NCBI GenBank assembly: GCA_002633005.1
Contig: NMRA01000923.1
Coordinates: forward strand, 34,805 to 98,804
Direction: 5' to 3'
Length of the DNA: 64,000 bases
Source of the DNA: Phoronis australis
Taxonomy: Eukaryota; Animalia; Phoronida
Below the pieces are notes generated by a model, which was not told the origin of the DNA, did no database searches, and saw only the letters and a program-made list of their open reading frames with translations. Below are positions 565 to 36,600 of this stretch, piece by piece. Made by a program: the position numbers and the translations under genes. Within the stretch, counting starts at the first letter, position 1, and every line of letters starts with the position of its first letter.

Positions 565-689
565 AGACGTCCTGTAACTCTTTGTGCTGGTACACTGGTC
601 GGTGACTCCAAAACAGAAACACCTCTTACACTGGCTGCGGTCCAGGGCGTTATCATTGTACAGCGGTGCTGGACAGACGGCAGTTTCAC
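565..689 (-). CDS. HSPG2: First laminin-EGF (domain III) exon
   Basis: ttgtcag|[42 protein letters not shown]|gtaagt; CFCFG motif. Confidence 0.94.
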
Positions 690-9600: not shown

Positions 9601-12600
9601 AACACACCACAATGGGAGAAGTTGCTTGGCAACAGCTGATCTCTATCACACAAAGCAGGAGGTTGTTTTCATAGTCACAAAAGACCTGGAGATGTTGCTA
9701 GGCAACAGCTGACCTCTGTCACACAAAGCAGTTTTGTTTTCATACTAGAAGACCTGACATCGAATTTTCACAAACAACCGATTTTAAATATTGAGAAAAA
9801 AATAAGGCAAAATATCACCAGTTTAGATTTTCTGCTTTTTTTTCAGCATGGCAGACAAGCAGGACCGCATTCCTTCTGCTACATAGTTATTGCTGTACAA
9901 TATTTTGAGAAATTGTGGGTACTTGTAGCACCCAAAGCACCACCAAGTAAAGAGTAACAACTTTTGGTGAGAACCCAATTGAGATTTCACTTTACATAAC
10001 ACCATCACTTAAGCATACATTATTTCAATGATGTGCACACTGTTGAAGTTGTTAAATGCATTCCTCTGTTACCTATATCACAATAGGAAACAAACACACA
10101 GTATTTCTAAGTTACATTTAGTTATCACATTGTTTATACTATATTAACATGAGTTCATTGCTGCTCATCTAAGCACAATACACTCGACTAATGAAACTGT
10201 AAATCTAAGGTCCAATGTGTTAAAGTCACTACAAACTGGCGCAGGGTTACTGTTTGTAGCTGAAGTTACAAATAACATGCAAGTCACAATTTTCTACAAT
10301 GAATATAAGCACTGTAACAACACTCGATTCCAAGGCTTCTGGAACTAAAAGGTCAATCAACATGTTAATGACTATGATGGGGGCGATGCCATCTTTTGGT
10401 TAACCTGAGCATTAGTGGATGAAGCGGGCGGAGGTTGTGCCACTTACTGCAGTCGCGTTCATCACTTCCATCTCGGCAGTCGACACGGCGGTTGCAGCGA
10501 CGTTGTATGTCTATACAGCGTCCTGAAGTGACACACCGGAACTCTCTGCTGCTGCAACGCTGTGGCTGTACAGCTACAGAAACAGTGAACATGTCTCAAA
10601 GACGGTGTTAATACACAAACTATATTTCTGTTATCGAACACCACCTGACTCACAAAATACCTCAATACATAACTGACATGTTTCATACAACCCACAGATA
10701 TTCACAGGTAATGTTGCAGTCATCAAAATATGCAATATGCAAATTTATACTCGTTCCTTGGTTCACAAACAAAAGACATGACTCAAGAGGACAGATTAAC
10801 AGTTGCACACTAAGAGGCAGCACTGCCTGCCAACCCCTTAGCACTGTCACTTGACTGAATACATGCATTGATCTCTGTTCCAACAGACAGAGAACACATA
10901 CCACAATTGTACTCATCAGAGCCATCTCGACAGTCGCGACGACGATCACAGCGACGCCTATTGTCAATACACTGACCAGAGCGACAGCGGAACTCAGCAT
11001 TGGTGCAACGATTTGATGCTAAAGGAAAAATCAAATTTACATTTCATGGCAGAACCCTGAAAGCAATACCTTAAAACACTTAAAAATAAATCTCATTTGA
11101 ACCATTTGGCAAGACGGTCACAAAATGTGTGGCATAGCTTGACTACATTTGATTCACTCTCCCGGCGTTTAAGTTAGGTCAGCCGTCAACACCACCTGAT
11201 TGGTTTGTAAGCTGGAAGTCGTCAGAGGAAACCAATGAAACAAATGTTAAGGGTAGATTCGAGTTGCAATCCGTAGACCCAGATCATTTATAAAGCGGGA
11301 AGAAATCTTCACTTATGAAATTTCTAAACGTTGAGTTCAGTATCCCTTCAACATTTCAGCCAACCTCTTCAGTGGCGGCCATTTTATTAGGGATATGCTG
11401 GTAAGCTCACAAGCATAATTCCAGAAACACTCGCCTTTTCCACAAAATGGCAGTGATAAAATCTCAGGGACCAAAAGGACCATAGCCTGGACGCTTTTTT
11501 TGTCATAATTAATTTAAGTAAGCTACCTCATCAAAAGCGTGAAAAGTGAAAATAAACATCTTGGTTCATTTGGCAGTTCTTATCTTAATGACGTCAGCTT
11601 AACATGTGTGGGCAGGAAATTGGATGTCCACTGTTAGGAGAGAGATTCCGTACTTGGGACAGTCAATCTCAACGAAACTGCATAATGACTCGTGTGATTA
11701 TGTGTAGTCTCATGTGATCTTCGTCTTAGCAAGATTCTTACGGCTACCGAAATTACGCCGGGAGAATGAACACGAGTTTATCTAATCTAACCTAATCTGA
11801 CACACGAGCCACAGTTCATTTCCAGTAGGCATATAGAACTCTAGTTTGAATGTACATTTAATATATGCAGAGTATAGAATAAACATGTTCCAGCAAAGCC
11901 ATCACCAGTGGGGTAATAACAAATTTATTTTTCATCAAAATAGTGCAGGAGCAAGCAGTGTGCCCATGACCTGTCAATCTGCGTGGACCTGTCAATCACA
12001 ATATGACAGTGCTGCTCATAAGTCACAGGATGGCCCCAAAAAGACAAAATCAAAAATTAATTCTAAACATAAATCAATTTATTTTTGGTAGGGCTAAAAA
12101 TATGCAATCTTTGGGTGATGTTTCCACAAAGTATTTAAAATCATACGAGTCGAACTGACAGAGTTTGAAACTTTACAAGAAATTTTGCAGGTTTCTTTTT
12201 GGAGTCATTCTGTTGCATATAAAGATGTGATCCCAAGCTGCAGCCAATGTATATCTATCAATCTGAATGGTCCAGCTGTCAAAGCCAGGCTACCAACACT
12301 TACATATTGTTATCTCGAACAATTCTGCTACAAATTCAGACAAATGAAATGAACACAAGACCAGACAAACACTGGACACAGTAAAACATCAACAAACAAA
12401 GCAATTACAGCAACTTAGTTAACTCAAAATAAATGAGAAATCACATTAGGATAAGCTTGAGAAATTAAGTGAAGCTATCAGGCTTATAACACAGGCACTT
12501 GAGTTTATCTGTTCCTCGATCACATCACGATCACATCACGACTGACATCACTCACTTCTAAAAAAACATAAAGGTTGGACACCCACAATCTGCTCAAAAT

Positions 12601-15600
12601 TTCCAATCAAATATGCATGGAACTCTACAAAACCAGCACTGAACAAATCTTTGAATACTTTTTTCATTTGATCTCTTCCAATTGCCTTCAAGTGGTGATT
12701 TGACGACAGAAAATGTCAAAAAACACCAAAATCACAATTTCAAGGACCTCATTTTGTGACGCAAGACGTTGATGGCAGACGAGCATCCGGGTTGTTGGCG
12801 GACGACTCCCAAAGCAATTCCAGAGCTGTTTTCGCGCACCCACGAATGTTATTTGAGTGCCCTCCACGTAATTTAGTATCAATTTGAATGTAATTAAACT
12901 CTGATTATGCAAACATTGTTTATAACCCTGGAACCACGGGTTGCTGGCTTCTAACGCCTACTGCGAAATCTGCCATTCACCAATGATGATTTACCGCGAC
13001 TAAACGTGTGGTCAGACATCGGAAATGTTCGTTGTGCTTCAACAAAGAGTAGCATATAATGTCAAGATCAAACACAAGATATGCTGGTTCTTGCATATAA
13101 GTTCTAGGTTAAGGGTTAAAATGAGCTATATGAAACAAATTACACTTAAGTGGAAGGTTAATTTTAATAACCTCAATTATTGAAATTGGGGATAAATTTC
13201 TTGACTTTGACGAAGGGGTTGCTTGCTCAAACTCGAAATTTTGTCTTCAACAGGCGTGAAAGATAAAGCAGAACTGAAATCCGCCATGTTAACTATTTTA
13301 GGTCCTTGAATTCAGAGTTGTGAGTTTGTTTTGAAAATTTCGTCGCCAATTCACCACTCACAAGGATAATTTAATGAAATCTAGGAAAAATAAGTCTACG
13401 GAGGTTTATGCAATACCAGTCTGAGAAAGATGCAGGGAGATTTTATTTGGATTTGGGACAGTTGAAGTTGGTAGCCTCGGCTCGGCAAAGTTTTAGTGTC
13501 CAACCTTTATGTTTCTTATAGATGGTTATGAGTCATCGAGAAATTCGAGTGCCTGTGGCTTATAATAGATGTCACAAAACTCTATCATCAGCACCTAGCT
13601 TTAGTACAAAGCATGTTAATATATTATACAAAAACTCATATGATTAGATTGTCCAACTGCCACGACAAAGAAATTCTAAACGTGGGGAAGGGTCGGTAAA
13701 AGGAAACCCACTTATTCAGAGAAGAGACTCAGAGAAAAGGAACCCAACAACAGGAAGTCTCCACTCTTTTGTAAAATTAATTTCCAGACACATCACCACT
13801 TCATAAGGAATAATTTCATAATCCTAACTCTTCCATAAGAGTTCCTAGACAGTCCTCTTTTTAAACACACGAAACACTTAACATGAGAAGAGGGGACATG
13901 CTGTCAAAAACGAGTACTGAACATATTCTGTAATGGAACTATTAAATACAGATGGGATCAAAAACCTGAAGTGAAGATTGTTGTTAGTAAGAAAAAGGAA
14001 TTTTCTGAACAGATTTTCTTAGTGAACCCTTTAGAAAAGAGGAAATCAAATTGGAAAAGGCATTTTTGTAAGATATTTTGTCGAAATTGCACCTTTTTCT
14101 GGGGAAAGTAGTCATGATAAAGTCACCCATCAGTGGTAGCTCCCGCACACCTCTTCTGGGAGAAACCTCCAAGTTCAAAATCTACCAAACCGACAAAAGA
14201 CATAAACCTTTTTGGGGAGGAAAAGAGGGTAAAACATCAAATAGGCCGTGAATGGACTTTAAGCATTGGTCACGTTAGATCGAGTGTTCTAGCGTTCTTT
14301 AAAATCAGCAGTCACTACATCCAAAGAATGAGCAGCTCTTAAACCAACTGGTTTATCCAGTCTCACTGCACAAGAAATTAATAATCTAAAGCTATGGGCA
14401 AGACATTTTGCTGGGAAGCCTGTGTAAGATCGCAAAGCATGAAATACACCATTAGGAGTTCACACAATTCTGTGAAAGAGCTGTCAAAGGTTAAGGGCGT
14501 GAACTTACTGCAGTCCAGCTCGTCAGACCGATCGCGACAGTGCGGATATCGATCACAACGCTGAGCTCGACTAATACAGGATCCATCTGAACAGCGGAAC
14601 TGGTCAGATCTGCAACGTCTTCTCACTGACAAGTAGAAGTAAGTGAACAGTAGAATGATGTTTTACTCCATTAGTTTACTAAGTAACTGATAGGTGGAGG
14701 CATGAGCTGGGCCCGATGTACTACCTCACGCTTATTACCGAGATGAAATGCTCGTCTATAACAGATGACACAGAGAGCAGAGGAAAAAATAAGAGAGAAA
14801 GTGAAGAATAAGTGACAAAAAGATAAATAATAACTAAAACGTAACATAATTTACTATGCTAAAGGGAGAGTTTGGAATAAAACCAGTTAGACAAAATAAA
14901 AAACTATAGAACAGAACAAAAGGAGAATACATTGGCAGACTTCAGTGACAACTTGATAGAAAAAAAAATAAGTTTCATTGTTAGGTTGATTAAAACCAAC
15001 TCCTATACTTAGTAATTTTATCTGTTCTCAGACCGATGGTGTAATTTTCCATATTATTTTGATTGCAACTTATAAGAAATGTTTGAATCTGAAACCATGT
15101 TTACACCGATGACTTCAAAATGATTTTACCGTAATTGTTTGGGGTTAATTCGATTTAGGAAGGGTAACAGTCACTTACAGGTATCCCACATTCTGAGAAC
15201 CAGTTTTCTCCACTGGATATCGGGCATCAAACTGGTTCTCAAATATGGGACCCCTATAAGTGACTATTGCCAAATGGACCTAATCAAAACCAATCCTTAC
15301 TCTGTGAAAAGTGCACAACAGAATCAATTGGACGTAGGTGGGGGAAGCCATATTTTCCGGTATACTTGCACATGTGCAGATCTAAGTTTCTGTGTCTACC
15401 TTTGGCCAAGATCGTTGGAAAACAGTAGCAATCTTTTCCAGCACCTCATCGTCATCATGAGAATATTAACCAAATAAAAACTAAACATGACCTTGAAAAC
15501 AATACAACTGCTCGTCATTTATAACAGGAAGCACTTGCCAGCGAGATGAGAAATGAGCATGCAGCACAGTCCCTAAACCAATATTGTTTTTGTAATGTAA

Positions 15601-18600
15601 ACAGAGAGATGAAGCAACCTAAGCTGATCAGTACGTCGATTCCTAATTTCATCGGTGTAAACGAGGTATGAGAAAATGCCAAAATTTTGAAACATCACAG
15701 TGTAAACGAAGTATAAGAAGTGCCAGAATTTTGAAACATCATCGGTGTAAACGGGGTATGAGAAAGTGCCAGAATTTTGAAACATCATCGGTGTAAACGA
15801 AGTATAAGAAAGTGCCAGAATTTTGAAACATCATCGGTGTAAACGAGGTACGAAAAAAGAATTTTGAAACATCATCAGTGTAAAAGACGTATAAGAAAGT
15901 GCCAGAATTTTGAAACATCATCGGTGTAAACGAGGTACGAGAAAGTGCCAGAATTTTGAAACATCATCGGTGTAAACAAGGTATGAGAAAGTGCCAGAAT
16001 TTTGAAACAAGAGGAGGAATTTTAAGTAGTAAACTGTTCCATTTCAAAACCTATAAAGCACATCATACAAAGTAGAGTGGAACAAGAGTCGTCTATCTAC
16101 TGTAGTCATTTTGACAAGATAAAAAAAATCAAATGCTTGAGGTTATCCCTACATGTATTCAAACATGATGCTGTAACATTTCTGAAATGCTCTGAGCAAT
16201 GTTTAGAGAACTTGAGCCATGTTTGTAAAGCTCAGAGTCGGGCATGTTTAAAATACAGAGCAATGTTTGAAAACCATATCCTTTTCTCCTTTACAACACA
16301 AATAACTGAAACAGTATCACATAGTGGTAATTGTACTTAATTCTAGTGTTGTAAATTGATACCAACATGCTCTGCAAGTGAAAATAATGTGCAACTACAG
16401 CTGTCTGTGTAGTGTTAGGGTATTTTGATTTACAAAGGTATTTTGGAAAAAGTGAACTCTAGTTTTAGAGGGGATAAAATTTAACCAATTGTCTACAGCA
16501 GTGCAAGTGGTTGAGAACAGGTATGTTTATCTATAAATACTATAATTTAACAAATATGCACAAAAGGAAAGTCTCTTAGTAAAGCCATGTGTACTCACTA
16601 TCATACGTTAAATGACTGGGATGAACTACTATGATGGGAAATAAAATCAAGGCAGTTAAGAACTAGTGCCAATAGTAACAGGCCTAGTAGAAGGAATGAA
16701 GACAGTGATGAAGTGAATAAGGGCCACTGGTGAGGTCGGGAGACATGCCACTCACTACAGCGTCGCTCATCGGAGCGATCAGAACAGTCAGGATACCCAT
16801 CACAGACACGACGCCGGTCAATACACTCAGAGGTAGTTTGACAGCGGAAGTAGCGATTGGATGGGAGACAGGGGGATATCCGCTTATGGCTAAAGAGGAG
16901 AGCTACAGAGACAAATCATAAGGTGATGACAATGAGCGGAATGGAGTTTCTTGCAGAAGAAGACGCAAGACATTCAGAAACAGGCAATGCTTAGAAATGA
17001 GGAAGCCTCGGATTAGAAACATTTTCAGTAGATGTACCACTAAGCTGAGGGAACAACCAACAAAGGAATTCATTATTACCATGGAACTAAATGAAAAAAT
17101 GATTAGTAATATGCTAGTTTGACATAAGCAACAGAAAAGACAAAAATGTGTTGTCAATCTCTGCATGAAAATTTTATACCCAACTTAGTGCAATGGTAAA
17201 ATGAGTAGCAGCAATGAGTAAACATCAGTTTAATTTGATCTAATAAGTAATTACAGAAGATCGCATAACTTAAAATGAGCGGTCCTTATTGGAGGACATA
17301 TTAGCTGTGTTATCATATATTGTGGTACTGTACACGGCTATAATGAAGAGTTGTGGAAAAGTCAGTTACATCAACAGAGGTGTCCGGCTAGCAGGATAAC
17401 ACAGGAAATGATTAGGTATAATGATGCCAATTGTTTTGTTTAGACAAGTTGAAGCACACTGCCACACACACATTCATACTGCATGTAATGCAACACTTTG
17501 TTTAACAAAAGCAACATCTTCAAATTAGACAAGCCTCTCAAAGCTGAAATTGAAAATAACTCTAACCATGACAAGCACAACAGACACATATTTCATAAAG
17601 CATCAAATGGAATGCACAGGAAAGATGATGTGCTTCACAACTGTGAAGCCCAAAATTGTGAAGCCCAACCCAATTTAAAACATTAAGTAGTGTGTCAGTC
17701 AAATCATAATCTATGATGTCCATGAAACCTAGTTCCTGAACATCTACTACCTTAAAGCCTTTTCATACTAACTTAACTACGCTACCAGAGGAGTGTCGTG
17801 AACTGTGAAGTTAGTTAAGCTTTCAAACCAGCTTCGGAATTTAGCGGCCACCACAGTTATCACACTGTTCGTATAATCCAAGATATCGAAAGGTTTCAAA
17901 TTTAGAAGTATCATATACTGGTTGGATAATAAAAGAAATGATTAACATCAGAATGGTGAATATTTGGAAAAATGATGAAATAACAACATGTGCCGTTACG
18001 ACACCTGTTGATAGTTCTTGCGACATCGAACCTAATTATTGATGCTGCAGCAAAAGATCAACACACCACTGGTAAATCCACCCAAGTTGTCCAGTCGTTA
18101 TTTTTGATCAAAAGACCGAAGTGAACCGTTCACAACGACCGACACTCCACAAAACACCAACGCGTTGCTTTTGGTGTGAAAGGCTCTCTAGGCTACTAAG
18201 AAAACAAAGTATGCAGAGGCATGCGTTTCAAGATGAGTCAAAACATAAAGAAGGCTGAAATAACTAATAGCACACTCCTGTTTAAATCAACAAATATAAG
18301 TAAGCTGCACATAACTAATCAGTTACAATGTCCCAATAGATGCAGCAAAGGACATTGTTAGATCAATGCAGACAGTTGTTATGATCATAGCAATGTTTAC
18401 CAGATGTTGCTTCTAGATGAAAACCTTCAGAACCAGCTACAAAAAGCAGGTAACGCTAGACAACACTGACCGCAAACTTAAACAGCTAGTTAGACTTAGC
18501 AAAAAGCATTTTAATGTTAAGAACACTTTTAACTGCATTGCTATATAAGGTTGGAGGTGGATTCGTAATACCGTACTCGTCCAAGTTATGCCCACTTACT

Positions 18601-21600
18601 AATTTTCCAAATTATATTTAAATGCAGTTGTTTGGTAACAGGCCAACTATGAACTTATGAATTTGAGACTTAAGATTCCTCAAAGCATAATAGCATAATG
18701 AATATTCATTTCACCGCCCAAAACGCATGCTTTCACTCACAAGCAGCATTATGTCCAATTTTTACTTAGTTCTTGCATGTAAATTGGGTCACATAAGTAC
18801 GACTCACCTGTCGTCGACCCTAATTGGCAGTTTGGGGAAACTGACAACACCAACTTTGCGAAATGTTTTCCTTTTAATGCTCACATTCAGCTTCAAGTAT
18901 TCAACGCGAATTTTAAGATTTTTAATTTGAACACACTAGGCAATAACCAAGAAAAGTACGATAATTATTTTACTCATTTTTGTGTAAAAAAACATGTACA
19001 AACAATAGGTTGAACTACCTAAGAATGACTATGAGTGAGAATGGCATATGGGAAGTGTCAAAAAATTTCAAGCTAATTCATGAGAATGTCATCTGGGAAG
19101 TGTCAAAAAATTCAAGCTAATTTAGTATATCTTAACTGGATGTCACCACAGGAAACTATTGGAGGGATTACAGGGATGGCTTAAAGCATATTTAGCATCT
19201 GTAAAAGTCCTTATTAGTAGACAAATGAAGAACAGAGTCTAAAAATATATGTATAAACATAATTTTACACTTATCGACTTGGTGATCACATAGCCATGAA
19301 TTCCTGGCTAACTTTTTTTCTTAAAATTTGGAAACAGTTGTATTTCAATATTTTCAAAATTTGACTTAGGTTAGACAGTAAGCTTTTGTTTTGTTGTGAA
19401 TGATAATTTTGACAATAAAATAATAAATACAAAACGATCCTTATTGCATTTGAGATAAAAGGCACAAAATACAAAAACGATTCACGAACCATAGACTTAT
19501 ACATTATTTCTCAACATATTGTAGCCAAGTGTACGAACCTCACACTCTACGTAAAAATAATCGTATGGTTGTAATTATTTTGTCACAGTTAATGCAGTAC
19601 ATACCACAGTTGACTTCATCGGAGCCATCACTGCACTGAGATGTTCCATCACACTTCTGAGAGGCAGGGATGCAAGACTTGTCACCACAGGTAAATTCAG
19701 TGTCTGAATCACACTCCTGTGTTCTGCCTGAAGCTGTACGAGGAAAACAAAGATAGGAATTAGAAAAAAGTGCAGGTGTCATAAGTTAAAATGATCAAGC
19801 AATTAATGCTATGGTGTATTAGTTTCTGATGACTATAAACATGGAATATATCGAGATTGTACATGAAACACTCATGTTATGGAAAATATAAATTCAATAT
19901 TACCCTGTTCATAATACCCCAAACCCACACCCAAGTTAAAACAGGAACAGCTTGTTCGGGTGGAAGTCCTAATGTAAACACAACTTCCTCTGGAACAACA
20001 TGACATTGCAAATCCAAGGGACATCCTGCATTCAAACTTCTCTTTTGCACAGGTACAAAAAAATTCATGAATGACTCTACCAATTGGAAAGTTTAGAAAG
20101 TTAACACACTACTGAGCAGAGTCTAACTGTATACTACAACCCACTAAGCCTTTACTTCTTTCTGTCAGCACTATAGAACACTGCACTGCAATGGTGAACT
20201 AATTTAGATGTAAACTAACGATTTGAATGGCAACAGTCAGATGAGAACGTACACTATGGATGTGCACCATTGTAAGTAAATTCAGAATTGTGCATAAATA
20301 CAATACTAACAGTAGCCCAGTGGTACTTTGGGATACTGATTATTGGATAAACGTCTCCTCCATTTGAGTGGGCAGTCTTCCATACTGACATCTTGTTGCC
20401 TTCAAAAAGTCAGAGTACCAACGTCTCTTTTCAAAAATACTAACAACAATAAAGGCAAACATGTATACATAAGTACTTCATTCCCACAAAACCACAATAA
20501 GAGACAACAGAAGAGAAATGTTTTATTTCACAGTTCAAAATATACAAATGAAAAAATAAAGAATTGAGGATAAGCAAGTACAGTTAAAGAGGCCTGAAGT
20601 GTGAAAACATGTAAATGATACCTTTTAAACAGCTTGTGGTGAACCTATTTCATTGCGATGATAAAGGGAGTTATTCACCTTGCATAATGCAAGAATTTCT
20701 AGAAAACAATCGTCAACATTCGCTACTTTTGGAACACAGAATGAACTATGCACTTTCATCCCAATAGTTTTCAAATTCCCCGCCTCTAATAATATACATA
20801 AGTGCATAGCACAAAGAATTTCCACGTAAACATTTCCCAAGTGCATAATCGCCATTGTTTTGTTTACATTAAAGGATACATTTTCCATATAAGTGAAATG
20901 TGCTAAGTCTAAGTCTTGCCAAACCAAATAAGGTGACATACTTTCGTGTTCAGCAAGAAAAATCAACGAAATGATGAGCATCTGACAGTCACTTCTTTTT
21001 TTAAATTTGAAACTAAACAAAAAATGCTTTGACACGCACAGAATTTCAAAATCTTTACAAACAAAATGCAAAAATATCTGGTGAACAGTTCGACTTGTGT
21101 TTCAGTGGCAAAGAACCACTTTGAATAATGCAATTTAGTCCATTTTCTGTGTTATGTCACTTTTAAGACAAAGACACAATCTAAGACAAATGTAACAGCA
21201 CTACCACAGCAATATTTGCAAGTTAAAATATAAATATGTTAACAGCGTATAAAAGCAGATATATTAACACTGCACAAAAAAATCAAGACACGTTAACACT
21301 GTAGTAGAAAATGAAGATATAATAACATATAGAAGCAAAGAACTGACAAGGCAGTACAAACAATAACAGAAATTTCAGCTGGTACATTGTCACACAAGAG
21401 ACTACATAGGAAACAAGAACAAGGAATACACCACAATAGAATTACTGCAACTATAACCTGTTCTTTCAGCTTGTATTTGATATTCTCTGTTTGCAGTGTC
21501 AAAATTGAATTGGAACTTGAATTCAACCTTATCTTCGTTGATGAACGTGCACCTCTTTAACTCTGGAGACTCTGAAAATGAATACCAAAATATCAATAAA

Positions 21601-24600
21601 TGGAAGAAGCACATAGGTGGATCCATTAACAAAAGATAACATCAAGGTAGACATGGGAAAGGCATCAACAAACGCCAAAAGAAAACGGACAAACTTCTGT
21701 CTCCCCATTATGATGATCAAGTCTGCCAAAAGATTTTTTTGGCTTATAAAACCTGAAAATGATGCCATGACTCATCATTCAGACTGTATCATCATCTCAC
21801 GATGTTCTGAGACCGCTACAATAGCCCATTATAATAGTGCATAACGTTGACCCAATTCCAGTGTCCATGTGGATTACACTAGGTGGCACCTTGGCAACTT
21901 TGGAAGCTGTGGAATGGCGAAGGTAAAAAAATGCAAAAAATTAAGCCAACTTTTATTAGGGCTGTTCCAGTAAAATCTGTATGGGAGGGGGGAAGGCACC
22001 TTTTTTTCACACCCACCACCCATATTTTTCATTTATTTCTTCAGCCTACCACCCGTAACTTTTTATAAGTTTGAAATGCAACCACCCGTAATTTTTTTTT
22101 GTTCTTGTGGTTGACTGCACAGGCGCTTGAATTTATCTGTTCCTCCATCACCACTAACGTCATTCATTACTAAGAAAACATTCGTTTCTTATATATGGTT
22201 ATTAACCATCGAGAAATTCGAGCACCTGTGGTTAAATGGTGTTATGGGCATGCGGATGAGGAGATCGGAGGGAATGAAAATGTCGGAGCTTTTTGCAAGT
22301 TGCATTTTTGTTTCAGTTTTTGATTCTGTGCGGATTGTTTATACAATTTACTAAAATTACCCACCATCAAACATTTATGGCCCAATGAAACAACAAAGAC
22401 CTGTAAATTTTTATTTTTTTGAAGTACGACCACCAGCCATTTTGAATTTAAATCAAACGCAACCACCCATAAATTTTTATTTCAGTTGCCTTCCCCCCCA
22501 AACAGATTTTGCTGGAACAGCCCTTAGTTAAATTGCTTTTTTCGATGGCAAGTGGCTTTAACTCTGAGTTTAAAAGAGCTGCGAGGAATTCCGCTTGCGT
22601 TCGTCCAATTTTAGGCTATAGCACCATACATAAAATTCAGCCGCAAAATTATAATAGGCCATTTGCAAAATGAATAACAGCAATGAATCATGTTTGCTAG
22701 AAGGTAACGAAAATGTCCCTTCAACAATTTAACAAGGTTGTCGGCTTATTAAAAAAAGTGCAGCCACAGTAAAATCTTAATATTCATTCTGTAATTGTGA
22801 CAGGAACATGACGCTCTCAGCTTGGCATGCGTGTAGCACAAGTCTTAGTTCACAATTTGTTGCATCTTTGTAACTTATCACAATTTTTTACACTCGAGGA
22901 AAAGTGAATTGCCTTCCCACTTCCTTAACTTCCGGAAAATTCTCCGACATTCTGTCCTGATGGTATTCAACTTGCACTCAGCTGTCATGACAAAATCCTG
23001 CTAGCAACCAGCCATCATGACAGGGCCCAGCAAGTATTTCTCTCTGCATACTTTTAGAATTTTCCTGCCTTTAGTGAATGTGCAGCAAATTAAAATCAAA
23101 ACATGAACCAAATGGAATTTTCCCATGACTTGGGATATATTTTGTCTTGATATTGAAAGACGACATCTGCGCTGCTAATGAGNTTCAGTTTTTGATTCTG
23201 TGCGGATTGTTTATACAATTTATTAAAATTACCCACCATCAAACATTTATGGCCCAATGAAACAACGACCTGTAAATTGTTATTTTTTTGAAGTACGACC
23301 ACCAGCCATTTTGAATTTAAATCAAACGCAACCACCCATAAATTTTTATTTCAGTTGCCTTCCCCCCAAACAGATTTTGCTGGAACAGCCCTTAGTTAAA
23401 TTGCTTTTTTCGATGGCAAGTGGCTTTAACTCTGAGTTTAAAATAGCTGCGAGGAATTCCGCTTGCGTTCGTCCAATTTTAGGCTATAGCACCATACATA
23501 AAATTCAGCCGCAAAATTATAATAGGCCATTTGCAAAATGAATAACAAGCAATGAATCATTGTTTGCTAGAAGGTAACGAAAATGTCCCTTCAACAATTT
23601 AACAAGGTTGTCGGCTTATTAAATAAAGTGCAGCCACAGTAAAATCTTAATATTCATTCTGTAATTGTGACAGGAACATGACGCTCTCAGCTTGGCATGC
23701 GTGTAGCACAAGTCTTAGTTCACAATTTGTTGCATCTTTGTAACTTATCACAATTTTTTACACTCGAGGAAAAGTGAATTGCCTTCCCACTTCCTTAACT
23801 TCCGGAAAATTCTCCGACATTCTGTCCTGATGGTATTCAACTTGCACTCAGCTGTCATGACAAAATCCTGCTAGCAACCAGCCATCATGACAGGGCCCAG
23901 CAAGTATTTCTCTCTGCATACTTTTAGAATATTCCTGCCTTTAGTGAATGTGCAGCAAATTAAAATCAAAACATGAACCAAATGGAATTTTCCCATGACT
24001 TGGGATATATTTTGTCTTGATATTGAAAGACGACATCTGCGCTGCTAATGAGGAGAAAATTGCCCCACACTAATAAGAAAGACTATGACGCCAATTTCAT
24101 AGGGCAGAATAAATGAGATCTGGCAAATTTAGTTACTGTACCTTCAAGTTTATCAACCACATCCACCCGTGGACACTCCTGGTCACAGGCTGTGCCACTC
24201 TTCGCAAGTTCACCAGTGCCCAGCAGGAGGCATTCAACACAGGGTTTTAACTCTCCACATTTATTACCACAGGTCTGTAATAGCAATCAACAGCAACACA
24301 TTCAGACAGACATTATACATTAGGCTAATAGACAGAGAACACAACAGTGAAATAGCATGGAAAGAGTAAAACAATGCAACTTTGACTGGAACTCATAACT
24401 ATGCTCCATGGAACAAGAGAATGTCAGCTCTGACAACATAACTCACTGGACAGTCTTCACAAAATCGCCCTCTGTAAGGCTCTTCACAGACACAAGCTCC
24501 ACAGTTACAGGTTCCATGACCACTACACAAATCCTGCAATGCAAAACAAACCTATGGCAGCACTTATGAACACAAACATAATGTAAATATTAGTAAAAAC

Positions 24601-27600
24601 TCAAAAGTTTCTCTTTCTGCATCGTTTAAAGGCTTCATAAATTGCTGCAAACTCAAACAATTTGCCAAATGTTAACAGTTGTACAGCACAAAAACTACAT
24701 AAAAGTACAAACAAAAATAAAAATTTCCAATGATATACACCAACTCCAACAAAGCACATTTTTGTGCAAGTCAGGAAATAAAATGAAAAGAATCAATCCA
24801 GCTATGTAAGTTTACATGTGTCACCCATTGTAGCATTACTATATAGTTAGAAGTTGGCTATACATACCCCTGCGCCAGTAGAAGCACGACATTTGTCTGT
24901 TGACAATGAACAGTCGCATGAAGGGCCAGTGTAGAGTACATTACATACACATTGGCCACATACGCATCTACCTTCACCATTACAAATAGCCTGCAGGAAA
25001 AGATTAGAAAAGTTACGAATTAGTTGAATGGGTAGTAGCTCAGCAGGAAACCCACACACACCTACCCTAGAATAACTCACAGCAGTGCAACTTGCCGCAC
25101 TTTTAAGTAGAGCGTCCACACATACATAAGCGCTACTCCGCGCATGCAGAACTTTATAAAAATACGATGGCATGAAAAAGAAAGGACAACTGCGCAAGCA
25201 AGCATATCTTACTTCACCTTTTCACCAGTTTTCCGGCCATGTAGTGATTAGAAATCGTGCCAGTTACCCTTTAACTGCTTATCCTACACCGAAAAGGTGC
25301 ACTAGCTAAAATAGCGTCCAGACAGTCCCCAAAACTATTGACAACTCGTTCCAGAAGTAACTAAGGTAAGTCTGAGTGTGGATGGTGTTAGACATAATTT
25401 GTTGTTGAAATGTCGCGCGTTTGGAACTACGGTAACCATGTGCATGCAAATGCGAATGATTGTTCTGTTACTGCTAGAGAATAAAAAAATCTGATGAATG
25501 ACAACTGTAATCATGAGGTTCGACATATTTGTGTTTAGACCAGAACAGTGTATAAAGCACTATGTAACTTGAGGGACTTAAATGGCGATTTGTTAGTATT
25601 AACCAGAGACAAAAGCACACAGAACCCTTCTACTAATGTAGCAGTTATCCACGGGAAACAAAAAGTGATTTTTTTGCTCACTTGACATTTTTCATGGTTA
25701 TGTTGACGGTCTGCAACTCATGTTCCTAATCTTAAAATCAATCAAAAATAAGTATGACCATGTGACCATGGACTTGACATTACATATAGAAATCATTGAG
25801 AAAATTTGAAAAACATTATTCAAAGGTAAAACCCATTCTTACCCCATTTGCAGAAGGACATTTACCATCCGGAGGGCAAATGGGTTCAACTACAACACAG
25901 AATGTAACAAAAATTAAAACATGGACAAATGATATACATGGTTATATTGGATAACAAACATTACCACTAACTACATGGCAACCCTCATGATGGTTGCCAT
26001 GGAGAATCCAATCACCAACAACAGAGGTTTCACTTTCAAAACCCATGATGACAGTTGTACACCTACTCACAGCTTATACAGACATGGAATGTATAAAGAA
26101 TATACAGTAGAGTATCCACAAATTGGGACAAAAATAAAATACCAACATCGTCATTGTCTATTTTTAAAAAAAAATACTTCATTGCTAAAAATGCTCAATA
26201 GATGATGATAGTTATATAATTCAAAGTGTGAAAATAATGAAGAAACGTTTCCTTCCAGTTTTCTAGTTGAAAATATTCATTAAGTAAAACATGACTGTTC
26301 CACCATATTCTGTTCTAACTGAAAGAAACATTACTGTAGTTCATGGACTAGTAGTGTGTGTCTCAAAATGTTCACCTGTAAATTTCAACTACAAAAAACA
26401 ACTGACTTACCTTTGACCAATTAAGTATATTTTCAGGTGATGTTTTACCTTTGGCGTTTTTTAAATAGACTGAAAACAGTGTTGTCTGTCTGATAACATA
26501 ATTAAAAATAATAGTTTTCATTTCACCACTTGTTGAACTCCTAGGTAACTCTCTGATTTTCATAAACTAAAATGCAGTCTTGTGCTGACCACAGACACAG
26601 GTTAAGTCAAAAGCTGACTGATGTATTAGGTGAGGTAATATATAGCGTCTGTCCAAAAAACGACCTGGCGAAATTCCCAAGTCGCCCACTGGGAAATGAG
26701 CTCATCAAAGGGAAAACCCATGTGCGGCAGTGCAGTGGTCCTGGCCTTCACAAACGACAGTACGAAAGATGACCGATTTGCAGCCTGTTCCACAGACCAA
26801 AGAATCTCGAGAGGAAGCCAATGTGATCACATGCTCAGCTTGCTATTAATAGCAATATCTCGCAAAATCTTGCATTTTTGCGAGGACAAGTCTTCGCTTC
26901 CACGGAATGAACATCTGTTCAGCTAAGAAAGCAGCTAATCATAAAACATTCACTTCCTGAATTGAATTCCGTAACCACAAGAAATCCGCAAGCAAAACCA
27001 GTATGATTGCCTTGCAGGTTTGTTTGTAATGCATGGTGATATCTCGCGACGACATGCATGATCTTGTGATTTTGCTAGTTTGTCTACAGAACAGGCCAAA
27101 CAACTCCAGCTTCTGTCAATTTCATAACGTAAAATTGTCGCCAGGACTTGACAGGGACCTCAGGGGTCTTACACTCCACTGATTTATCCACATTATTTTG
27201 AAATCGCTTTGCCCAGTCAAACATTGAGTGTCATAAAAGAGATAAGCATACCAGTAGAACTACTCTCTTTTATCACATTTGTGTAGACTCACAGTTTAAC
27301 TGTGGATTTCTGTAGACACCAGACCGTCCTGAGTTGCATCATATACCAACTCCGGACGGTTTCGATTAAGCGTTATGTACTTCCTGTTATACTTTAAGAG
27401 CAGGTTAGGATGTGAGCTGAGGGTGGCATATGTACTGATTTCAAGAAGTTAATCTAACATTTGTAAACCAAAGGTGTTTTATTTGAAGAAAACGATATGA
27501 CAGCTGAATTTTCTTTGTCCGACTTCTTCTGACTTTGGTTGCAAAAATCCGGTGACTTGTACAGGTTGCCAAAACAACCCCTGCAGAGGTTAACCAGGTC

Positions 27601-30600
27601 GATAGTTCAGACTTCTGCGCTTATTACTGACTGCTATGCTTCAATAGTTCAGACTTCTGCGCTTATTACTGACTGCTATGCTTGTTAACCAACCACATTA
27701 GCTGCTCACATCACCATAGTTCATATTGTAGTGTGACCCCATCACTAGCACCAATTTTTACCTTCTGTGGTGGTAAGCAATAAGGTCAATACTATTCCCT
27801 CACCGATAATATGCTCACTTGGCAATTACAGGCTAATAACAGGAGTAGGATAAAATAGTGAAAACCACCAAGTCAAATTTGACCTCTTCCCTTACAAATG
27901 ATCACATCATTGTCTTCAGTGACAAGGTGGAACTTGTTGGACATTGGATGAGACCTTACTACTAAAACCAATGTCAGTCACCAAGATGACATGGTCAAAG
28001 GCAACATAGACTTTATTACAATGCCAATGTGGTGGGGAACCTGAAAGTCAGCAAGTGGTCAACGAAGTGGACATGGTGGACCACCACATCCTGCTGTGAA
28101 TTCTGTAACTAAATCTGCCAGAAATTGCATGCTTTATCCTGCTTTTGTAGGCACTACATTTTCAACAGAAGTGCAATGATTTTATAACTACATGTCTTTT
28201 ACCTTATTACCCATCAACCCGGATATGTTAAGTTCAACAGCCTATTTTCAATTAAGAACTGTGAGCACCCAAATACCAAGCACATTTTGAGAGTAGGAGG
28301 AACAGTCAAACCACATCTGAAGTTGAGAGCATGTTCTCAAAATTTAATGAAATTCACACCAGCACCTGAGTAAAACCACAACATTATCCATTACTTGTTG
28401 GGCCTAGCAAGGTGGCCACTGGTTTTGCTTCTGAGGACAGTGTTTTAATAAACGCCGAAACAACTGTCAAGCTGATTTAAATTCATCCTTGTTTTTATCA
28501 ACATTATTCTTAAATAACTTGAGACTTTTCCAACCAGGTATCAAATAGCCAGGTTAAAGATTGGATTTTTTAACTTCAGCTTGACAAATAAAGAAACCGT
28601 TTCCCATAGTTCTAGTTCTCAGTGAGTAGTGTTTCATGTTACTTAGAGAGGGCATCTAAGTTTGACAGCAGGAAACAGAATTCTAAACAGCCTGCAAATC
28701 AGTCTTGATGATTTGGTAGCTTGGTTCTAATATTCTCAGACTTCAACCGATTACATTCCAAGCCCTTTGTCCTGCTATCAAAGGACAGATCACATAGGTT
28801 ATCATAGACAAACACATTATGATAAATACTACTCTGGTGACTGGTGAGGACAGATAAGTTGACCACCTGTAAGCCCTTCAGTAAAATTTATGATGATGGA
28901 CTCATCCAGGAGTCCTGAGACAAATGACCAAAATTTAAAGATACTACCTCCACTACATTTTAGTTACATTCTTCATGGAATAGACATCAACATAAATCAA
29001 CTTTTAATGAAAACCTCATTCACAAATGATGTTCTTCCCACACAAAAAATTGAAAAAAGAACAGAATTTAATACTTAGTGACTTACAAAGATAACAGGCT
29101 GTCATCCAAAGCTCTCACGATTAATTCGCTTACAAGGAAAACATGCATTTCTAAAGATATCCGGAAATTTTCAAAGCTGTTTGTTCAACCTTCTTCTGAG
29201 CGGCTTTCACCTGGATCAAAGAGAGCCATGCGCCAGAGTCAGACGCAGTGGTGATGACCGCATTGGCCAGTACGTGCAATGAAGTGTAATTACCCAACCA
29301 AAAAATGTAGTAAACATCTTTGCCTGTAAACACTGACGAATTTTCAAAATGCTTACACCAATAATTTTCGGTAAAAATAAACATTACGGCAGGTTTCAGC
29401 TGAAAAAAAAAACAACTTAGTTTGGTTTTCGATTTTTAGCTATTGATGAACTAATAAGCTAAACACTACAAACATCGGATATGAATTGAAGATAAAAACC
29501 TTGTGTATTGATATACTCGGAAGATTTACAAACACTGATCATAGTTAACATCATACCACATGGTTTATTCTTTTAGTATACAACTAAACTGTATTACACA
29601 AAATAGAAACAACACACAGTGACTAAATTAGATGTCAACAGGTTTTATGACAGGGCTTATCACCCAATCGTGTTGAACAACTTTACATAAGGAGTAGCAT
29701 GCTAACAAGAAAACCGTGATATTCAGCTGGCAATGAAACGCAGGTCATGTACACCAACTATGGCTAGCTTCAAAGTTAATGAGAAAATGTTAGATGAGGT
29801 GGGTCAGTGGGTGAGACCTGACTTCTAAGTTTTACTGAGGATTAAAATCTGACTCTGTTTTGGCACATAAAGTTTAAACATAAAATCAAAAGACAGCAAC
29901 CCAGCAGGAAACACAAAAACAATTACCTTTCCGCTTCATTAACATGAATACAAAGAGCGAGATAAACGGCAAACATAATAAAAGTAGTCTGAGGGCAAAG
30001 GGAATCTCAGTGGAGACCAGTGTAAGATAGAAATTCTCTACACGTTTCTTTTCAACTGCGCATGGTAAAATCTTATTAATTTAAGAGACATTATGGCAGA
30101 CAAACGCAATTCCATTTTTCAATTTTTCCCATGAAAAATTTGTAGCAGTAATGCAATGCTTTTAGATGTTCATGGTTTGTACTGTAGCTACCACCAAACA
30201 ATATTTGTAAAACTTGTGGACAAACACAACATGGTTAAAACCCTTTGAAAAAAGAAAAAGAAACACTCTTGAAAATTATTTAGTCCAAAATTGATGAGAT
30301 TTTACCGTAAAGTTTAATCACTGTAAGGTTTTACAATTTGACAAGTTTAGTTAAGGAATTTTAACTGGGGTAGCAGGAAAACGAGTGGCCCAGTTAAATG
30401 ACAGCCATCTTTACTTTTTATGAGCTTGAGAGCAAAAATCAAAAATAATTATAGAGCAGTAATTTACTAAATGCTTATACAGTATGCGACTGATTCCATG
30501 TTTTAGACTCATGAACATTAAGGAAATTGTGTCAGAGTTGACATCACATCAAAAGAGACATGCTATCATTAGCTTCAAGAGGGAAACTGGGGAACTTTAT

Positions 30601-33600
30601 TCAGGGTGGGGACATCCGCTAATGCAACCTCTTGTGGTCAAGATTAATGGAAGCAACAAATATATTCCTCTCACAGCCTATTTTGTCTGTGCATGCGCTG
30701 TCAGTTTATTTCTTGATTTAATAAAATCAAAGTACTTGTAGCATTATTTCTGTAAACCATTGTAAAACAAGTGCTCAATGAAATTAAATGCCTGCTTCCG
30801 TAAAATGTTGAGAACAGACCACCCATCAGTGTGTGCATCCACTTTCTAGTTTTTGCTCTTTTCAGTTACATTTTACCCAAGGCTGTAGTTTTAATCAAAA
30901 AAGTTGGCTTCCATTACAAAACAGCTTCTTTCCATTGACTCATCTCACGAACCCAAGAAAAAATGGTCAGTCAACTAAGACATTATGCAGTGTCCTACTG
31001 CTTTAAAGGCCATCCAAATACCAGTATGGAAGCCAGAAGGAAAATCATTTATGGCAATCTGTTGTTCTCATCATTTGACTGTGCAGAAACAAGTCACCAT
31101 AAACAATAACCATAGCACAGCAAGACATTGCACACAGAAACTCATTCATGGTTTCTTTTAAACACTCTAACCACAGTTTGAGTCATCAGAGCCCCTTTAA
31201 AATGTTTACAATCTCCATCAAACTTTCCAACAGTACTGTAAACAGATGATGTATTCAACTTAATGTATTTCTGCAGCCAGGATACATCTGTCAGCACATT
31301 CAACAGTAAAAAACACACCACCAACGCAATGAGGGTGGTAATAAAAATTAGGCACTAGTCACTTACAAGGGTCCCAATTTTGATGGCCATTTCGATACTC
31401 GATGGCAGAGGAGTAAGCTGGTTTTTGAAATGCAGGACATCTCTAAGTGAAAATTAACTGAAAGTTCAGATTTTCAATGTTTTGTAAAATGTGTTTCAAG
31501 ACTAATTTATGTACTTAGTGATGATTGTGCTTATAAAATGTGAAAAATAAGCGCTGGACTCAAATTACACATCCTACAAAAAGATTTAAAGTTCGTGCCA
31601 AGTCAAAAAGTATCAGATGCCAAATTTCACCGGTAATTGCAAGACCATCAACCACTTCCTTTGTTGGGAGTACTACCATACACTTTGGAGCAAGAATAAT
31701 TTTCCAGCACATTTACCATTCACATAAACAAGTGACTTTAAACATGATGATCAGATGAAAAATGGACATTCTCTACCTGAACAAAGGGTAAATATACAGG
31801 GGTGAATGACTCTGCAGATATCCGGACACTCGTTCAAAGCTTCAAATGTAAGCAGCTTAACCACAAACCACAATCAAAATAAATAAAAGTAACTGTGTGT
31901 AACTTTTATAGACTTGGCATTCATTGTAAGACATCTAGTGAAAAAAGAAACCATAGCCTGGGTATTGTCTGGGGAAGGCCAACAAAATATCACTTAGGCA
32001 AACACCAACAATGTTGATTTTCCATGTAAGCTGATCTGTGAGTTCAACTGTCTTAACAGCAGATGGATCTAAAAAGCTTTTTACTGTTGAACAATACCTG
32101 ACAAACAAATTCATTTCAAGACCATCACTGCAGACTATTAGATAAATTGTATTATGTAACAGGTCATTTACGGAAAGGTTCCCATCAAACTTGATACTCA
32201 ACCTGAAAAGAGGAGTTTTAATGAACTGTGCTAAGTGAAATAAAATCCTGGCTTAATGAATAATTGCAAACGTTGCCATTTTCCATTTTTCAACAGTTAA
32301 CTCCCTGCTACAGCAGCAGCAAGGAATATGTTCTCTCCATGTGCACTGCAAACAGCAGGTTAATGGGAAGCCCATAACTTCAGGTTCTATTACTACAAAA
32401 TTATAGTTTAATTTTCTCTAAGACTTAAACTTAACACAGCCAAGAACAAAATTAATTAAGATTGCATCAGAAGTTGTGTCAATTCGAACAAGACACAGAA
32501 ACTTTGAGAACAACAAGACATGAAAAAGTGTTCCACCTCGTGAAACAACAGTGAGTGTTCTGAAACCAAAATGGCCCATCTGGTGTCAACACTGATAATT
32601 GACTTACCTCAGTAGGAACACACTTAAACTCATGGCTGCACTTTGGGAGCAAGTTTTCGGTTACGCAGAATTTGTTAAACGCAAGACACTTTTCATTGTT
32701 CACAGTCCTTATTCCGTTACGTTCATACTTTTGGAACAAAACTCTACTCTCAACTGAACATAGATACAGTAACTGACCTAGCGACATAATTAAAAGACAC
32801 ACAATATTTAAAAACCCGAAACAACAGGCCAATTAGACATTCTCATTCGCCAGATCTCGTGCAAAATTTATTGTTACATTTGAAAACTAGACTCCTATAC
32901 TCAAGATTCATTTGAAAAAAACAATCATGGCAATTCACTGTTTACATTTTCACATTCCTGGAACCATCAACCCTCTTCACTTCTAGATAAGATAAACACC
33001 CACACCACAAACCTGTAGTCAAGATCATCTGAAACAGTCAGGTTAATGCCCTGGGCATTGAAGTTGGGCGGTTCTGGAAATTGGAAGATGGGCGCTTAAT
33101 TAACCCAGAAATGGGTGCTTAAATCGGAAATTTTAAAAGAAATTAGGGATGGGTATTTTCCCAAACTTGGGCGCTAACATTAACCCGCACCAGACAGGTG
33201 TATTCGCCACATGGGACATCATTTAACTTGGTACATATGTTTTATGGAAAAACAGTAAAATAAAATTTCACTTCTCGGCCATATCATGTCCTGAACTGGT
33301 GAGATCTAACCATTAATGCACATGCAGACACAGGCATATGCACCCATGTACAGGAGCACGTGAACACACAAACACGTAAGTCCCGTCCACACAGCGCCTA
33401 CCCTAGAACAACTTGCACTAGTGCAAGTTATCACAGTTTTAGTGAAGCATCCACGCATACACATATCCGATAACTATGGTAAGACGTAAGTTGTCGCTCT
33501 GAGCATGGCAATGAACGGCTAAAGCGAATACAGGGCGCAAATAAGACCACTCTGTATGTAACCGCAGCTAATTACTTCCGCCATGCCCCAGGTTTGCAAC

Positions 33601-36600
33601 CACAAAGGAATTAGAAGTGGCACAATTTACCCTAGAAAAAGTTACCTCAATAAGGTGGAGTAAAATGTCAGAAGTGGGGTAAGTTGCACTAGACTAGCGT
33701 CCAGACAGCACGCAAACCTAGCGACAGACAACTCGCTCCAGGAGCAACCTGTTCTTGGGTATAGTCTGTGTGTGGAGGGCACTATAGATTCGTTCATGTT
33801 GTATACTGTGCAGTGTTGATATGTAGCACCTATCCATATTTACTATCAGGGTGTCAGGTTTATTTATTTACTTAAGTAGTTGATATCATACATCAGTCTT
33901 TCAAAGTAAGTCCAGTGTATGCATAGTGCATAATAATTACCTACTTATATCTTCTATTGCTTAGTTGTATTGTACTATATTGTATTGTATCCTATTGTAT
34001 TGCACATTAGGGTGGTCCTCAGTGAAGTGGCTTTTGCTTTTAGGTCCTTTTCCCTTCAGTTAACTTTGGCTACTACTGAAACTTCAATGTTAACTAATTC
34101 GGAGTTAAAGTTCAGCAAAACTATCACAAGGCAGCACTAACATGACCTTTGCTGTTTTTGACAGTGCTTGCCATCAAAAATAGCAAAGACCTCTCCCTTT
34201 CTCCAGATGGAAACTAGAACATCACCTCCAAAAGGCAGCCAATGGTTGCCACATTGGGATGATGACGATACACAAGAAAATAACATATTGAAGAATTTGA
34301 CTCTTGAGCAGGCTTAAGTGCATGGAATGGTGGGAACGCGTTTTGCGTAAATTACATGTTCAGTGATTTTTTTAAAGTAGAGAATCCAGCGAATACCTGG
34401 ATAAATTGAAACAGAATGCTTAAACCGGCAAAATAATAATTATTAGCACAAACTATTACCAAATACTAACCAGTCACTGCCTACCGTTCGCAAACGTAGG
34501 CAGTGACCCCTGGTGATAACTCCGATGGCATCGAAGTTAAGTGTTTCCAATATAGCAAAGCCTCCACTTTGCTGTTAAATTCATCTCTTTACTTGTACAA
34601 GTAATTTTCATTCAAGACCGAAGCTAAGTGTTAAGTGACATTTGAATTGGAGGTACGTGTGACCTTAACAGCACTTGCAAGCATGATTTGACAACTTTCA
34701 AGATTATTTCAAACAACACTGAATTGTTTTGAGAAGTCACACATGTCTGAAGAAGAAAACATCCAAGTGAAGTTTCTGGCTCACACCCAGCAGACGACAC
34801 CAGGCGTACCTTCAGTAACGCTAGGATCTACGTTAGGACCTAGCTAAAATCTAGCCTACGTCACGTGTTCTCAGTTAAAATATACCGCAAAATTGCACGT
34901 GATCTCGCGAAGTCTTGCTTTTTAGCGAGGTCCTAGCATTACTGAACGGGAGGCAGGTTTAAAGTATCATTTCACATTACAATGGGAATTTATAAAGCAA
35001 CTGACTTCACAATAAGGGAGAAAATGAAGAGAACGTGTCACACTACAGATAACAGAGTTTTATTTCAATATTCAGGATTTTGACTCCACTATCAAGCAAA
35101 CAAAATTCCAGAATGCAAACACACCAGCCGTGTACTCAGGGTAAATAAATCTATTAGAAAGGTATACCTAGAGGTCATAAGCTGAATGAAATGATAATGA
35201 ACAAGTGAAGTCAGGTGTACAAGGATTACTGTTAAAAAGGTGGAAACCACTGCAGACGAGAGTACCTTTGGTACACCTCATTTCATGATCAAAGCATTCC
35301 ATCTTACAATGGAAACATATGACAAAATACCAAAGCAGTATCAATCAACCAATAGTTCATGGACTACACCCTCAAGTGAGAGTAGTCTCAATCACCCAAT
35401 AGTTCATGGACTACACCCTCAAGTGAGAGTAGTCTCAATCAACCAATATTTCATGGACTACATCCTCAAGTGAGAGTAGTCTCAATCAACCAATAGTTCA
35501 TGGACTACATCCTCAAGTGAGAGTAGTCTCAATCAACCAATAGTTCATGGACTACATCCTCAAGTGAGAGTAGTCTCAATCAACCAATAGTTCATGGAGA
35601 GTAGAAACTTTGACTCAGGTACTATTGACTATGTTTATTCTTACCATTAGTACCACCAGAAATACCTTCCCTTCAGCATCATCAAAAAGCAATGCAAAAT
35701 TGCTCCAATCGTAACTAATATTTCTCAAGTTTATTATTACATCAATTGGGGCATCTTACCACGTGTCAAAGAAATTACCAACATATTCTTGTAAAACATC
35801 CACTGGGTGTGCAAGATACTGCTTCATTTTTACTCAATAAATATGTACTCACTGGTTGCCGTACTTGCGCAGTTGAGCTCATCCGAACCATCGGTGCAAT
35901 CTTTATTTCCATCACACATCCACGAACCAACAATACACTGACCACTGGCACACTCAAACTGATTCGCAGCACACGGCCTGGCTGTTACCTTAGGTGGCTC
36001 TGTGGTGACAAGCAACAATACAGGAATGTAGAGTAACCGTAGCAACTCCATGGCAACCAAAGAAGGAATAAAACTCAAGAAGGCAATTTCATTGAAACTA
36101 CAGTGAGATCTTCCTAGCCTCTCCCAGTGAAGTTGAGCGGCTGTCTTAACACCACTCAGACAACTGGACAGATTTTTGCCAGCCCAGCTCCGTTTTTTTA
36201 TGCAAGGAAAACAGTCAGTGATAATCACTTCCAGTTGCAGGACATTAGAAATTCCAAATGCTAAGAAGCTTATTAGTTTCCAATCCTATGAGTATCACTG
36301 ATGAACTCAAGGCCAGATTGTTGCGTGACCTCACTGATATTTTGCTAGCGTTCCAGCAAAAATATCCAGGTGAACACTGCTGTAGATTATCAATGGACAA
36401 CCAGCTTAGAACCTAGGCTTTTTAGTGAGGCATCACTTGACACAGGGTCATGGACTGGAGCTGGTGATAGGTGGCGACTTCACTCATCAGACCTGTCACA
36501 GCCACTTGAGACTGACCAATGAAAACAAACACATTGTTTTGGGGCAGCCCTATTGGACCAAAAAGGGTTAAGGATCCCAGCAAAAACTAGATACCAGCAG

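Follow-up and report, generated by a model that had tools for sequence, protein, structure and literature searches.

The beta-tail domain is known as a part of integrins, and ITGBL1 is a secreted protein of ten I-EGF repeats that is not known to have a beta-tail and is encoded by a gene of its own. Domain II of human perlecan comprises four LDLa repeats and one Ig domain, according to PMC6266596, and that exons have been shuffled from one matrix protein to another is textbook knowledge (PMC3308698). The locus considered here lies in a 64,000-nucleotide stretch of the phoronid Phoronis australis (assembly GCA_002633005.1, contig NMRA01000923.1, forward-strand positions 34,805 to 98,804; hereafter the window, in whose own positions all coordinates are given): a perlecan gene carries, between its second and third LDLa exons, five exons encoding the I-EGF3, I-EGF4 and beta-tail domains of an integrin beta lower leg. 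We consider it quite probable that this leg was captured with its introns, is included as one optional cassette and works as a disulfide-stiffened spacer.

All five exons of the module are on the minus strand. Exon 1 (25889-25843, 47 nt; phase 1 in, 0 out) encodes the first two cysteines of I-EGF3 and is too short for a family scan; exon 2 (24990-24868, 123 nt; phase 0-0) encodes cysteines 3 to 8 of I-EGF3 and 1 and 2 of I-EGF4; exon 3 (24533-24447, 87 nt; phase 0-0) encodes cysteines 3 to 8 of I-EGF4 and the first cysteine of the CPTC linker; exon 4 (24274-24142, 133 nt; phase 0 in, 1 out) encodes the first half of the beta-tail; and exon 5 (21571-21458, 114 nt; phase 1-1), the counterpart of ITGB3 exon 13, encodes the second. 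Bounded throughout by AG and GT, they total 504 nt and form a single open frame between the LDLa2 exon (35999-35853, minus strand, phase 1-1; Pfam Ldl_recept_a, E 2.2e-14), their predicted upstream partner, and the LDLa3 exon downstream (19733-19605, minus strand, phase 1-1; Ldl_recept_a, E 5e-10). The internal phases are 0, 0, 0 and 1, and the block is entered and left in phase 1, as are all 13 LDLa exons; it is bounded by phase-1 introns and can be removed in frame, as is expected of a class 1-1 shuffled module. The 26-exon model of the host gene is free of stops both with the module exons and with all five removed. A reading made earlier from the sequence only had described five same-strand GT-AG exons totalling 504 nt with phase 1 at entry and exit, and its coordinates, frame and phases were reproduced: integrin-beta leg exons do lie within a perlecan gene.

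The domain assignment made in the sequence-only reading (I-EGF3, I-EGF4, beta-tail) is borne out jointly by Pfam, solved structures and cysteine pattern. Once joined, the exons encode 24 cysteines in the integrin arrangement of 8+8+2+6, two I-EGF repeats contributing eight each, and the tail cysteines are spaced 6,3,15,4,18, as against 6,3,14,4,20 in beta-3; because both the arrangement and the tail spacing agree so closely, the likeness to integrin is not due to chance. Three of the four beta-tail disulfide pairs are present with matching spacing. In a family scan run on each exon separately, EGF_2 matched exon 2 (E 2.9e-6) and exon 3 (E 9.2e-7) above its cut-off, I-EGF_1 matched exon 3 at E 9.2e-6, and the I-EGF_1 and EGF_integrin matches to these two exons were at or below those families' cut-offs. 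Exon 4 alone matched Integrin_B_tail (E 1.3e-6) over profile positions 2-35 of 88, a half-domain, with 29.2 bits against a cut-off of 33.6, but exon 5 scanned alone matched no integrin family in Pfam. Among solved structures in the PDB, exon 2 is matched best by integrin beta-1, in its third I-EGF (E 1.2e-8); for exon 3 alone, reelin stands slightly above integrin beta-3, with other integrin betas also matched, and exons 4 and 5 searched singly against solved structures gave no match.

The host gene (565..58237, minus strand) is modelled as 26 exons with 3801 stop-free nucleotides and extends beyond the window. Its domain order is a Ser-Gly-Asp (SGD) region, with two SGD motifs in exon 58237-58108; a SEA domain (Pfam E 5.8e-5, 23.6 bits against a cut-off of 26.4); an unnamed domain of 164 residues; LDLa1-2; the module; LDLa3-10; an Ig domain; LDLa11-13; a further Ig domain; and the start of a laminin-EGF region. 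This order agrees with that found by tblastn with named mollusc perlecans, and the model corresponds to perlecan domains I and II and the beginning of III; no exon for the signal peptide was identified. Identity to perlecan records is 49-61% in a conserved block, and the Ig is 52-62% identical to that of named perlecans; the perlecan features expected over this part of the gene, from SGD-SEA N-terminus and LDLa array to Ig and laminin-EGF start, are present. A tree of 33 perlecans, to none of which the window is more than about 60% identical, gives it a long branch but no firm placement; it stays outside a clade of 20 rows (support 99/98), most of which are named molluscs. An LDLa-like fragment near 36,500 contains no intact repeat and was set aside as a chance resemblance.

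Intron positions point to how the module arrived. According to PMC3865572, exon 13 of human ITGB3 has a length of 120 nt and ends at c.2134, with a protein numbering of 621-660 that lies 26 below the mature numbering used here, 26 being also the offset between precursor and mature beta-3; the beta-tail disulfides are given in excerpts of PMC13146540 as 608-655, 614-635, 617-631 and 663-687. From these positions it follows that ITGB3 introns 12 and 13, both in phase 1, fall 11 codons past C635 and 31 codons past C655 respectively. The phase-1 introns of the module lie exactly 11 codons past the C635 equivalent (3' end of exon 4) and 31 codons past the C655 equivalent (3' end of exon 5), so that they coincide with ITGB3 introns 12 and 13, and the 3' boundary intron of the module has the position of intron 13. 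The retention of integrin introns suggests that the block was likely captured from an integrin-beta gene as genomic DNA rather than as a retrocopy. For the origin of the 5' boundary, no source was found in the literature on invertebrate integrin intron positions. The proposal that a receptor leg had been exon-shuffled into this gene is supported by the phase-1 borders and two shared intron positions.

The same boundary bears on the missing disulfide. In ITGB3 the exon that comes next carries the membrane segment, and its first whole codon is C687; that exon is absent here, and the position of the partner of C687, C663, is occupied by valine in the module. The pair 663-687, gone on both sides, is the one beta-tail disulfide of the four that is missing, and the 24 remaining cysteines can all pair. 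The simplest reading is that the cysteine orphaned by capture was subsequently lost. That the last tail cysteine and its partner are both gone while 24 pairable cysteines are left suggests selection after capture.

The exons might alternatively belong to a nested integrin gene, or have been misassembled into this locus, and a contig join does indeed lie inside the module: a single N at 23183, in the intron between exons 4 and 5, is flanked by a direct duplication (22312..24052) of 873 nt at 98.7% identity. We take the duplication to be the overlap between the ends of two contigs. No gap separates exons 1-4 from LDLa2 and SEA, and none separates exon 5 from LDLa3. Other integrin exons were sought by a Pfam scan of 232 minus-strand stop-to-stop frames (135 + 97) of at least 36 residues in 16,900-24,100 and 25,900-38,100 and at least 45 residues in 38,200-64,000; three of the 135 were module controls, which scored. 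No PSI, beta-I, hybrid or further integrin family was found in these frames, which short exons could escape, and no neighbouring integrin exon appeared over the roughly 10 kb upstream of the module or the 1.7 kb downstream of it. When the entire minus strand was searched for integrin head and tail motifs, six NPx[YF] matches came up, none between exon 5 and LDLa3. Within these searches, the earlier observation that no PSI, beta-I, hybrid, I-EGF1-2, membrane or NPxY exon was to be found nearby is borne out. Exon 5 was also considered as the end of an integrin and rejected: reading through it yields a short tail and then a stop, with no membrane helix. The contiguity of the exons with their perlecan neighbours, the overlap of the contig ends, the lack of other integrin exons in the scan and the RNA joint described below make the nested or misassembled alternative very improbable, and on the 3' side it is largely refuted.

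Expression was assessed by comparing positions 16,100-22,300 with three raw RNA runs carrying the same species label (X1, X2 and X3, about 18-19% of each) and a contig set (X4). The splice from exon 5 to LDLa3 (21458 to 19733), one of two junctions for which an RNA check had been suggested, is present, with GT-AG ends on the strand of the gene: seven reads in two of the three runs (none in X1, one in X2, and six, with five different starts, in X3). Estimated depths of exon 5 and LDLa3 are 3.7 and 12.2 (X1), 1.0 and 11.8 (X2), and 12.0 and 16.8 (X3), placing exon 5 at roughly 8-70% of LDLa3, figures that are rough since they derive from few reads and from individuals other than the genome source. 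Bins beside exon 5 are near zero; the contig set did not cover the exons. Inclusion of the module looks partial. As exon 5 depth is below that of LDLa3, most LDLa3 transcripts in X1 and X2 are likely to be reached from another exon, and inclusion likely differs between samples.

Two further features of the RNA comparison concern neighbouring sequence. On LDLa4 (16902-16756, minus strand) the depth is about 0.8, 0 and 1.4, where LDLa3 reaches 12-17, and the joints listed include none from LDLa3 to LDLa4; it is probably another exon that most transcripts skip. The repeats LDLa4-10 are rich in arginine. Intronic repeats at 21955-22300 and 20780-21150 draw many reads, on both strands and with loose ends, and are multi-copy elements transcribed elsewhere.

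Several observations weigh against a captured leg that is included whole and maintained by selection. In the region compared, RNA supports one of the six junctions, by few reads and by none in X1, and neither an LDLa2-exon 1 join nor a skipping join was observed. Exon 5 alone keeps the frame, and eight partial combinations of module exons are free of stops. The earlier suggestion that the module could be skipped as one cassette agrees with partial inclusion, which the depth of exon 5 relative to LDLa3 suggests. Exon 5, with its phase 1-1 borders, is the sole module exon for which there is RNA evidence here, and it might be used by itself, or within another frame-keeping subset, or in a transcript starting inside the LDLa2 intron. 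By itself, however, it would encode half a domain with one unpaired cysteine, and exons 1-4 are intact, with acceptors that, like all those of the module, score inside the range of the host's own exons; we regard partial use as unlikely.

The donor sites are less favourable: with a matrix built from the host's own exons, which range from -0.2 to 11.7, the exon 4 donor scores -1.2, the lowest of all 25, and that of exon 5 is weak at 1.4. GC content at third codon positions is 0.34 in the module, against 0.46 in host exons. These features, together with the low apparent inclusion in X1 and X2 and the absence of the module from every perlecan fetched, would also suit a recent, tolerated capture, functionless so far and included at a low level as its frame happens to survive. 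Neither a relative that has the module nor an integrin that could have donated it was found, and the donor may already have been without the 663-687 pair. In a neutral simulation (4000 trials) the frame, splice dinucleotides and all 24 cysteines survived 2% change in 4.7% of trials and 5% change in 0.075% (3/4000), which favours selection only if the capture was not very recent. Against a functionless newcomer stand the loss of both cysteines of one disulfide while the other 24 pair, the lack of any remaining integrin exon in about 10 kb upstream and 1.7 kb downstream, and an apparent inclusion of about 70% in X3, and we give this explanation as little credence as partial use.

The course of events that we favour, capture with introns followed by optional inclusion, would run as follows. 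Recombination within phase-1 introns would have transferred the integrin block into perlecan; the membrane exon, with the last tail cysteine, would have stayed in the donor, and the orphaned partner would then have been replaced. Inclusion would vary by tissue or stage, and in the included form the N-terminal glycan region, SEA, the jelly-roll domain and LDLa1-2 would be set further from the remaining LDLa array. Of the two roles suggested earlier, rigid spacer and ligand of integrin-leg partners, the former is the one we infer as most likely.

The included module could instead act by binding, docking on integrin alpha legs or on other cell-surface partners of the leg. ITGBL1, a secreted I-EGF protein, reportedly acts on integrins, a parallel in favour of such a role. 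In addition, excerpts of PMC13146540 describe the beta-3 tail as touching alpha calf-2 and binding protein disulfide isomerase. Against it, the strained 663-687 disulfide, which those excerpts call allosteric, is precisely the one lost, and no RGD, KGD or LDV motif occurs in the module. Binding by the whole module seems to us doubtful, and equally doubtful is its bolder form, in which a splice-switched integrin leg would bind alpha legs or partners and the matrix would tune integrin activation by receptor mimicry.

The module appears in no other perlecan at hand. Of 346 proteins fetched, 171 have the perlecan Ig motif, many of them isoforms of one species and none from a close relative; blastp, phmmer and an I-EGF core pattern that occurs twice in the module detected it in none of 170 perlecan N-terminal parts. 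A word-based protein search with exon 2 found nothing among proteins of up to 2000 residues, which is weak evidence, and an Atlas search with exon 4 gave no usable match; when cluster representatives were searched with the Ig, the matches were mainly multi-Ig proteins, and 12 of 150 had the perlecan motif. No description of an integrin beta-tail in perlecan was met in the literature searched, from which subscription journals were largely absent, and the word integrin does not occur in the main-text passages of a paper on perlecan evolution (PMC4398486) that were available. The sequence-only reading, which had held that vertebrate, fly and worm perlecans are not described with such a leg, agrees with both searches.

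Foreign modules as such are not rare in domain II. Three of eight scanned proteins carry them: FN3 in Sinanodonta (P0217) and Mya (P0224), PKD in Mya as well, and three thyroglobulin-1 repeats in P0024. P0245 has a short cysteine/tryptophan domain with no Pfam match, and scallops, oysters and abalone have two-cysteine inserts of Ig size. This repeated uptake by invertebrate perlecans makes an integrin insert less surprising.

Features of the locus apart from the module include the 164-residue domain, encoded after SEA by a single phase 1-1 exon (40439-39930, minus strand) with no Pfam match. It is common to 52 of the 170 perlecan N-terminal parts; in a smaller, earlier set it occurred in 19 of 122 perlecans, the named ones being molluscs. 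A word-based search with its exon found none among proteins of up to 2000 residues, again weak evidence. Its predicted model is an all-beta sandwich (pLDDT 77). Among the best VIA-align rows for this model (Z 10.5-8.0, root-mean-square deviation about 3-3.6) are chains of phage tails and capsids and the lectin-like domain of Cwp84, while Foldseek returned no match at E 0.001. In the Atlas the domain has unnamed clusters from eukaryotes as neighbours, at 0.96-0.98. The model would possibly fit a carbohydrate-binding fold. At 1365-2200 the window has a gap of 188 N preceded by a duplication of about 340 nt at 93% identity, and intronic minisatellites lie at 53926-54401, 35337-35598, 15649-16009 and 7421-7980, with periods of 37, 47, 46 and 66.

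The module is thus real, expressed, integrin-derived and probably alternatively included; the capture process is known, and the integrin donor appears undescribed. A beta-tail and two I-EGF repeats, with introns of their own, have moved into a core basement-membrane protein and are expressed there, which makes this a clear example of exon shuffling in which a later step can also be seen: a cysteine was lost after its partner had stayed behind. Domain II of invertebrate perlecans emerges as a place where modules have been captured repeatedly, and the locus offers a natural test of whether the lower leg of an integrin can fold and bind when no alpha subunit is present.

Compared with the perlecans (HSPG2) of molluscs, annelids, arthropods and vertebrates, the gene has the same order of Ser-Gly-Asp region, SEA, LDLa array, Ig with the WRLNWG motif and laminin-EGF, and differs by domains, I-EGF and beta-tail, that none of the 170 fetched N-terminal parts contains. 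With the lower leg of integrins beta-1 and beta-3 the module shares the order I-EGF3, I-EGF4, CPTC linker and beta-tail, the cysteine spacing and two intron positions with their phases, but it lacks the 663-687 disulfide, is set in a secreted protein and is accompanied at the locus by no PSI, beta-I, hybrid, I-EGF1-2, membrane or cytoplasmic exon that we could find. ITGBL1 likewise presents integrin-type EGF repeats within a secreted protein, as stand-alone repeats, whereas here two repeats and a beta-tail lie inside perlecan. Closest in kind are the lineage-specific inserts of perlecan domain II, which also place a foreign module amid LDLa repeats; those are widely shuffled single domains, whereas the insert of P. 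australis is a receptor block of three domains and five exons.

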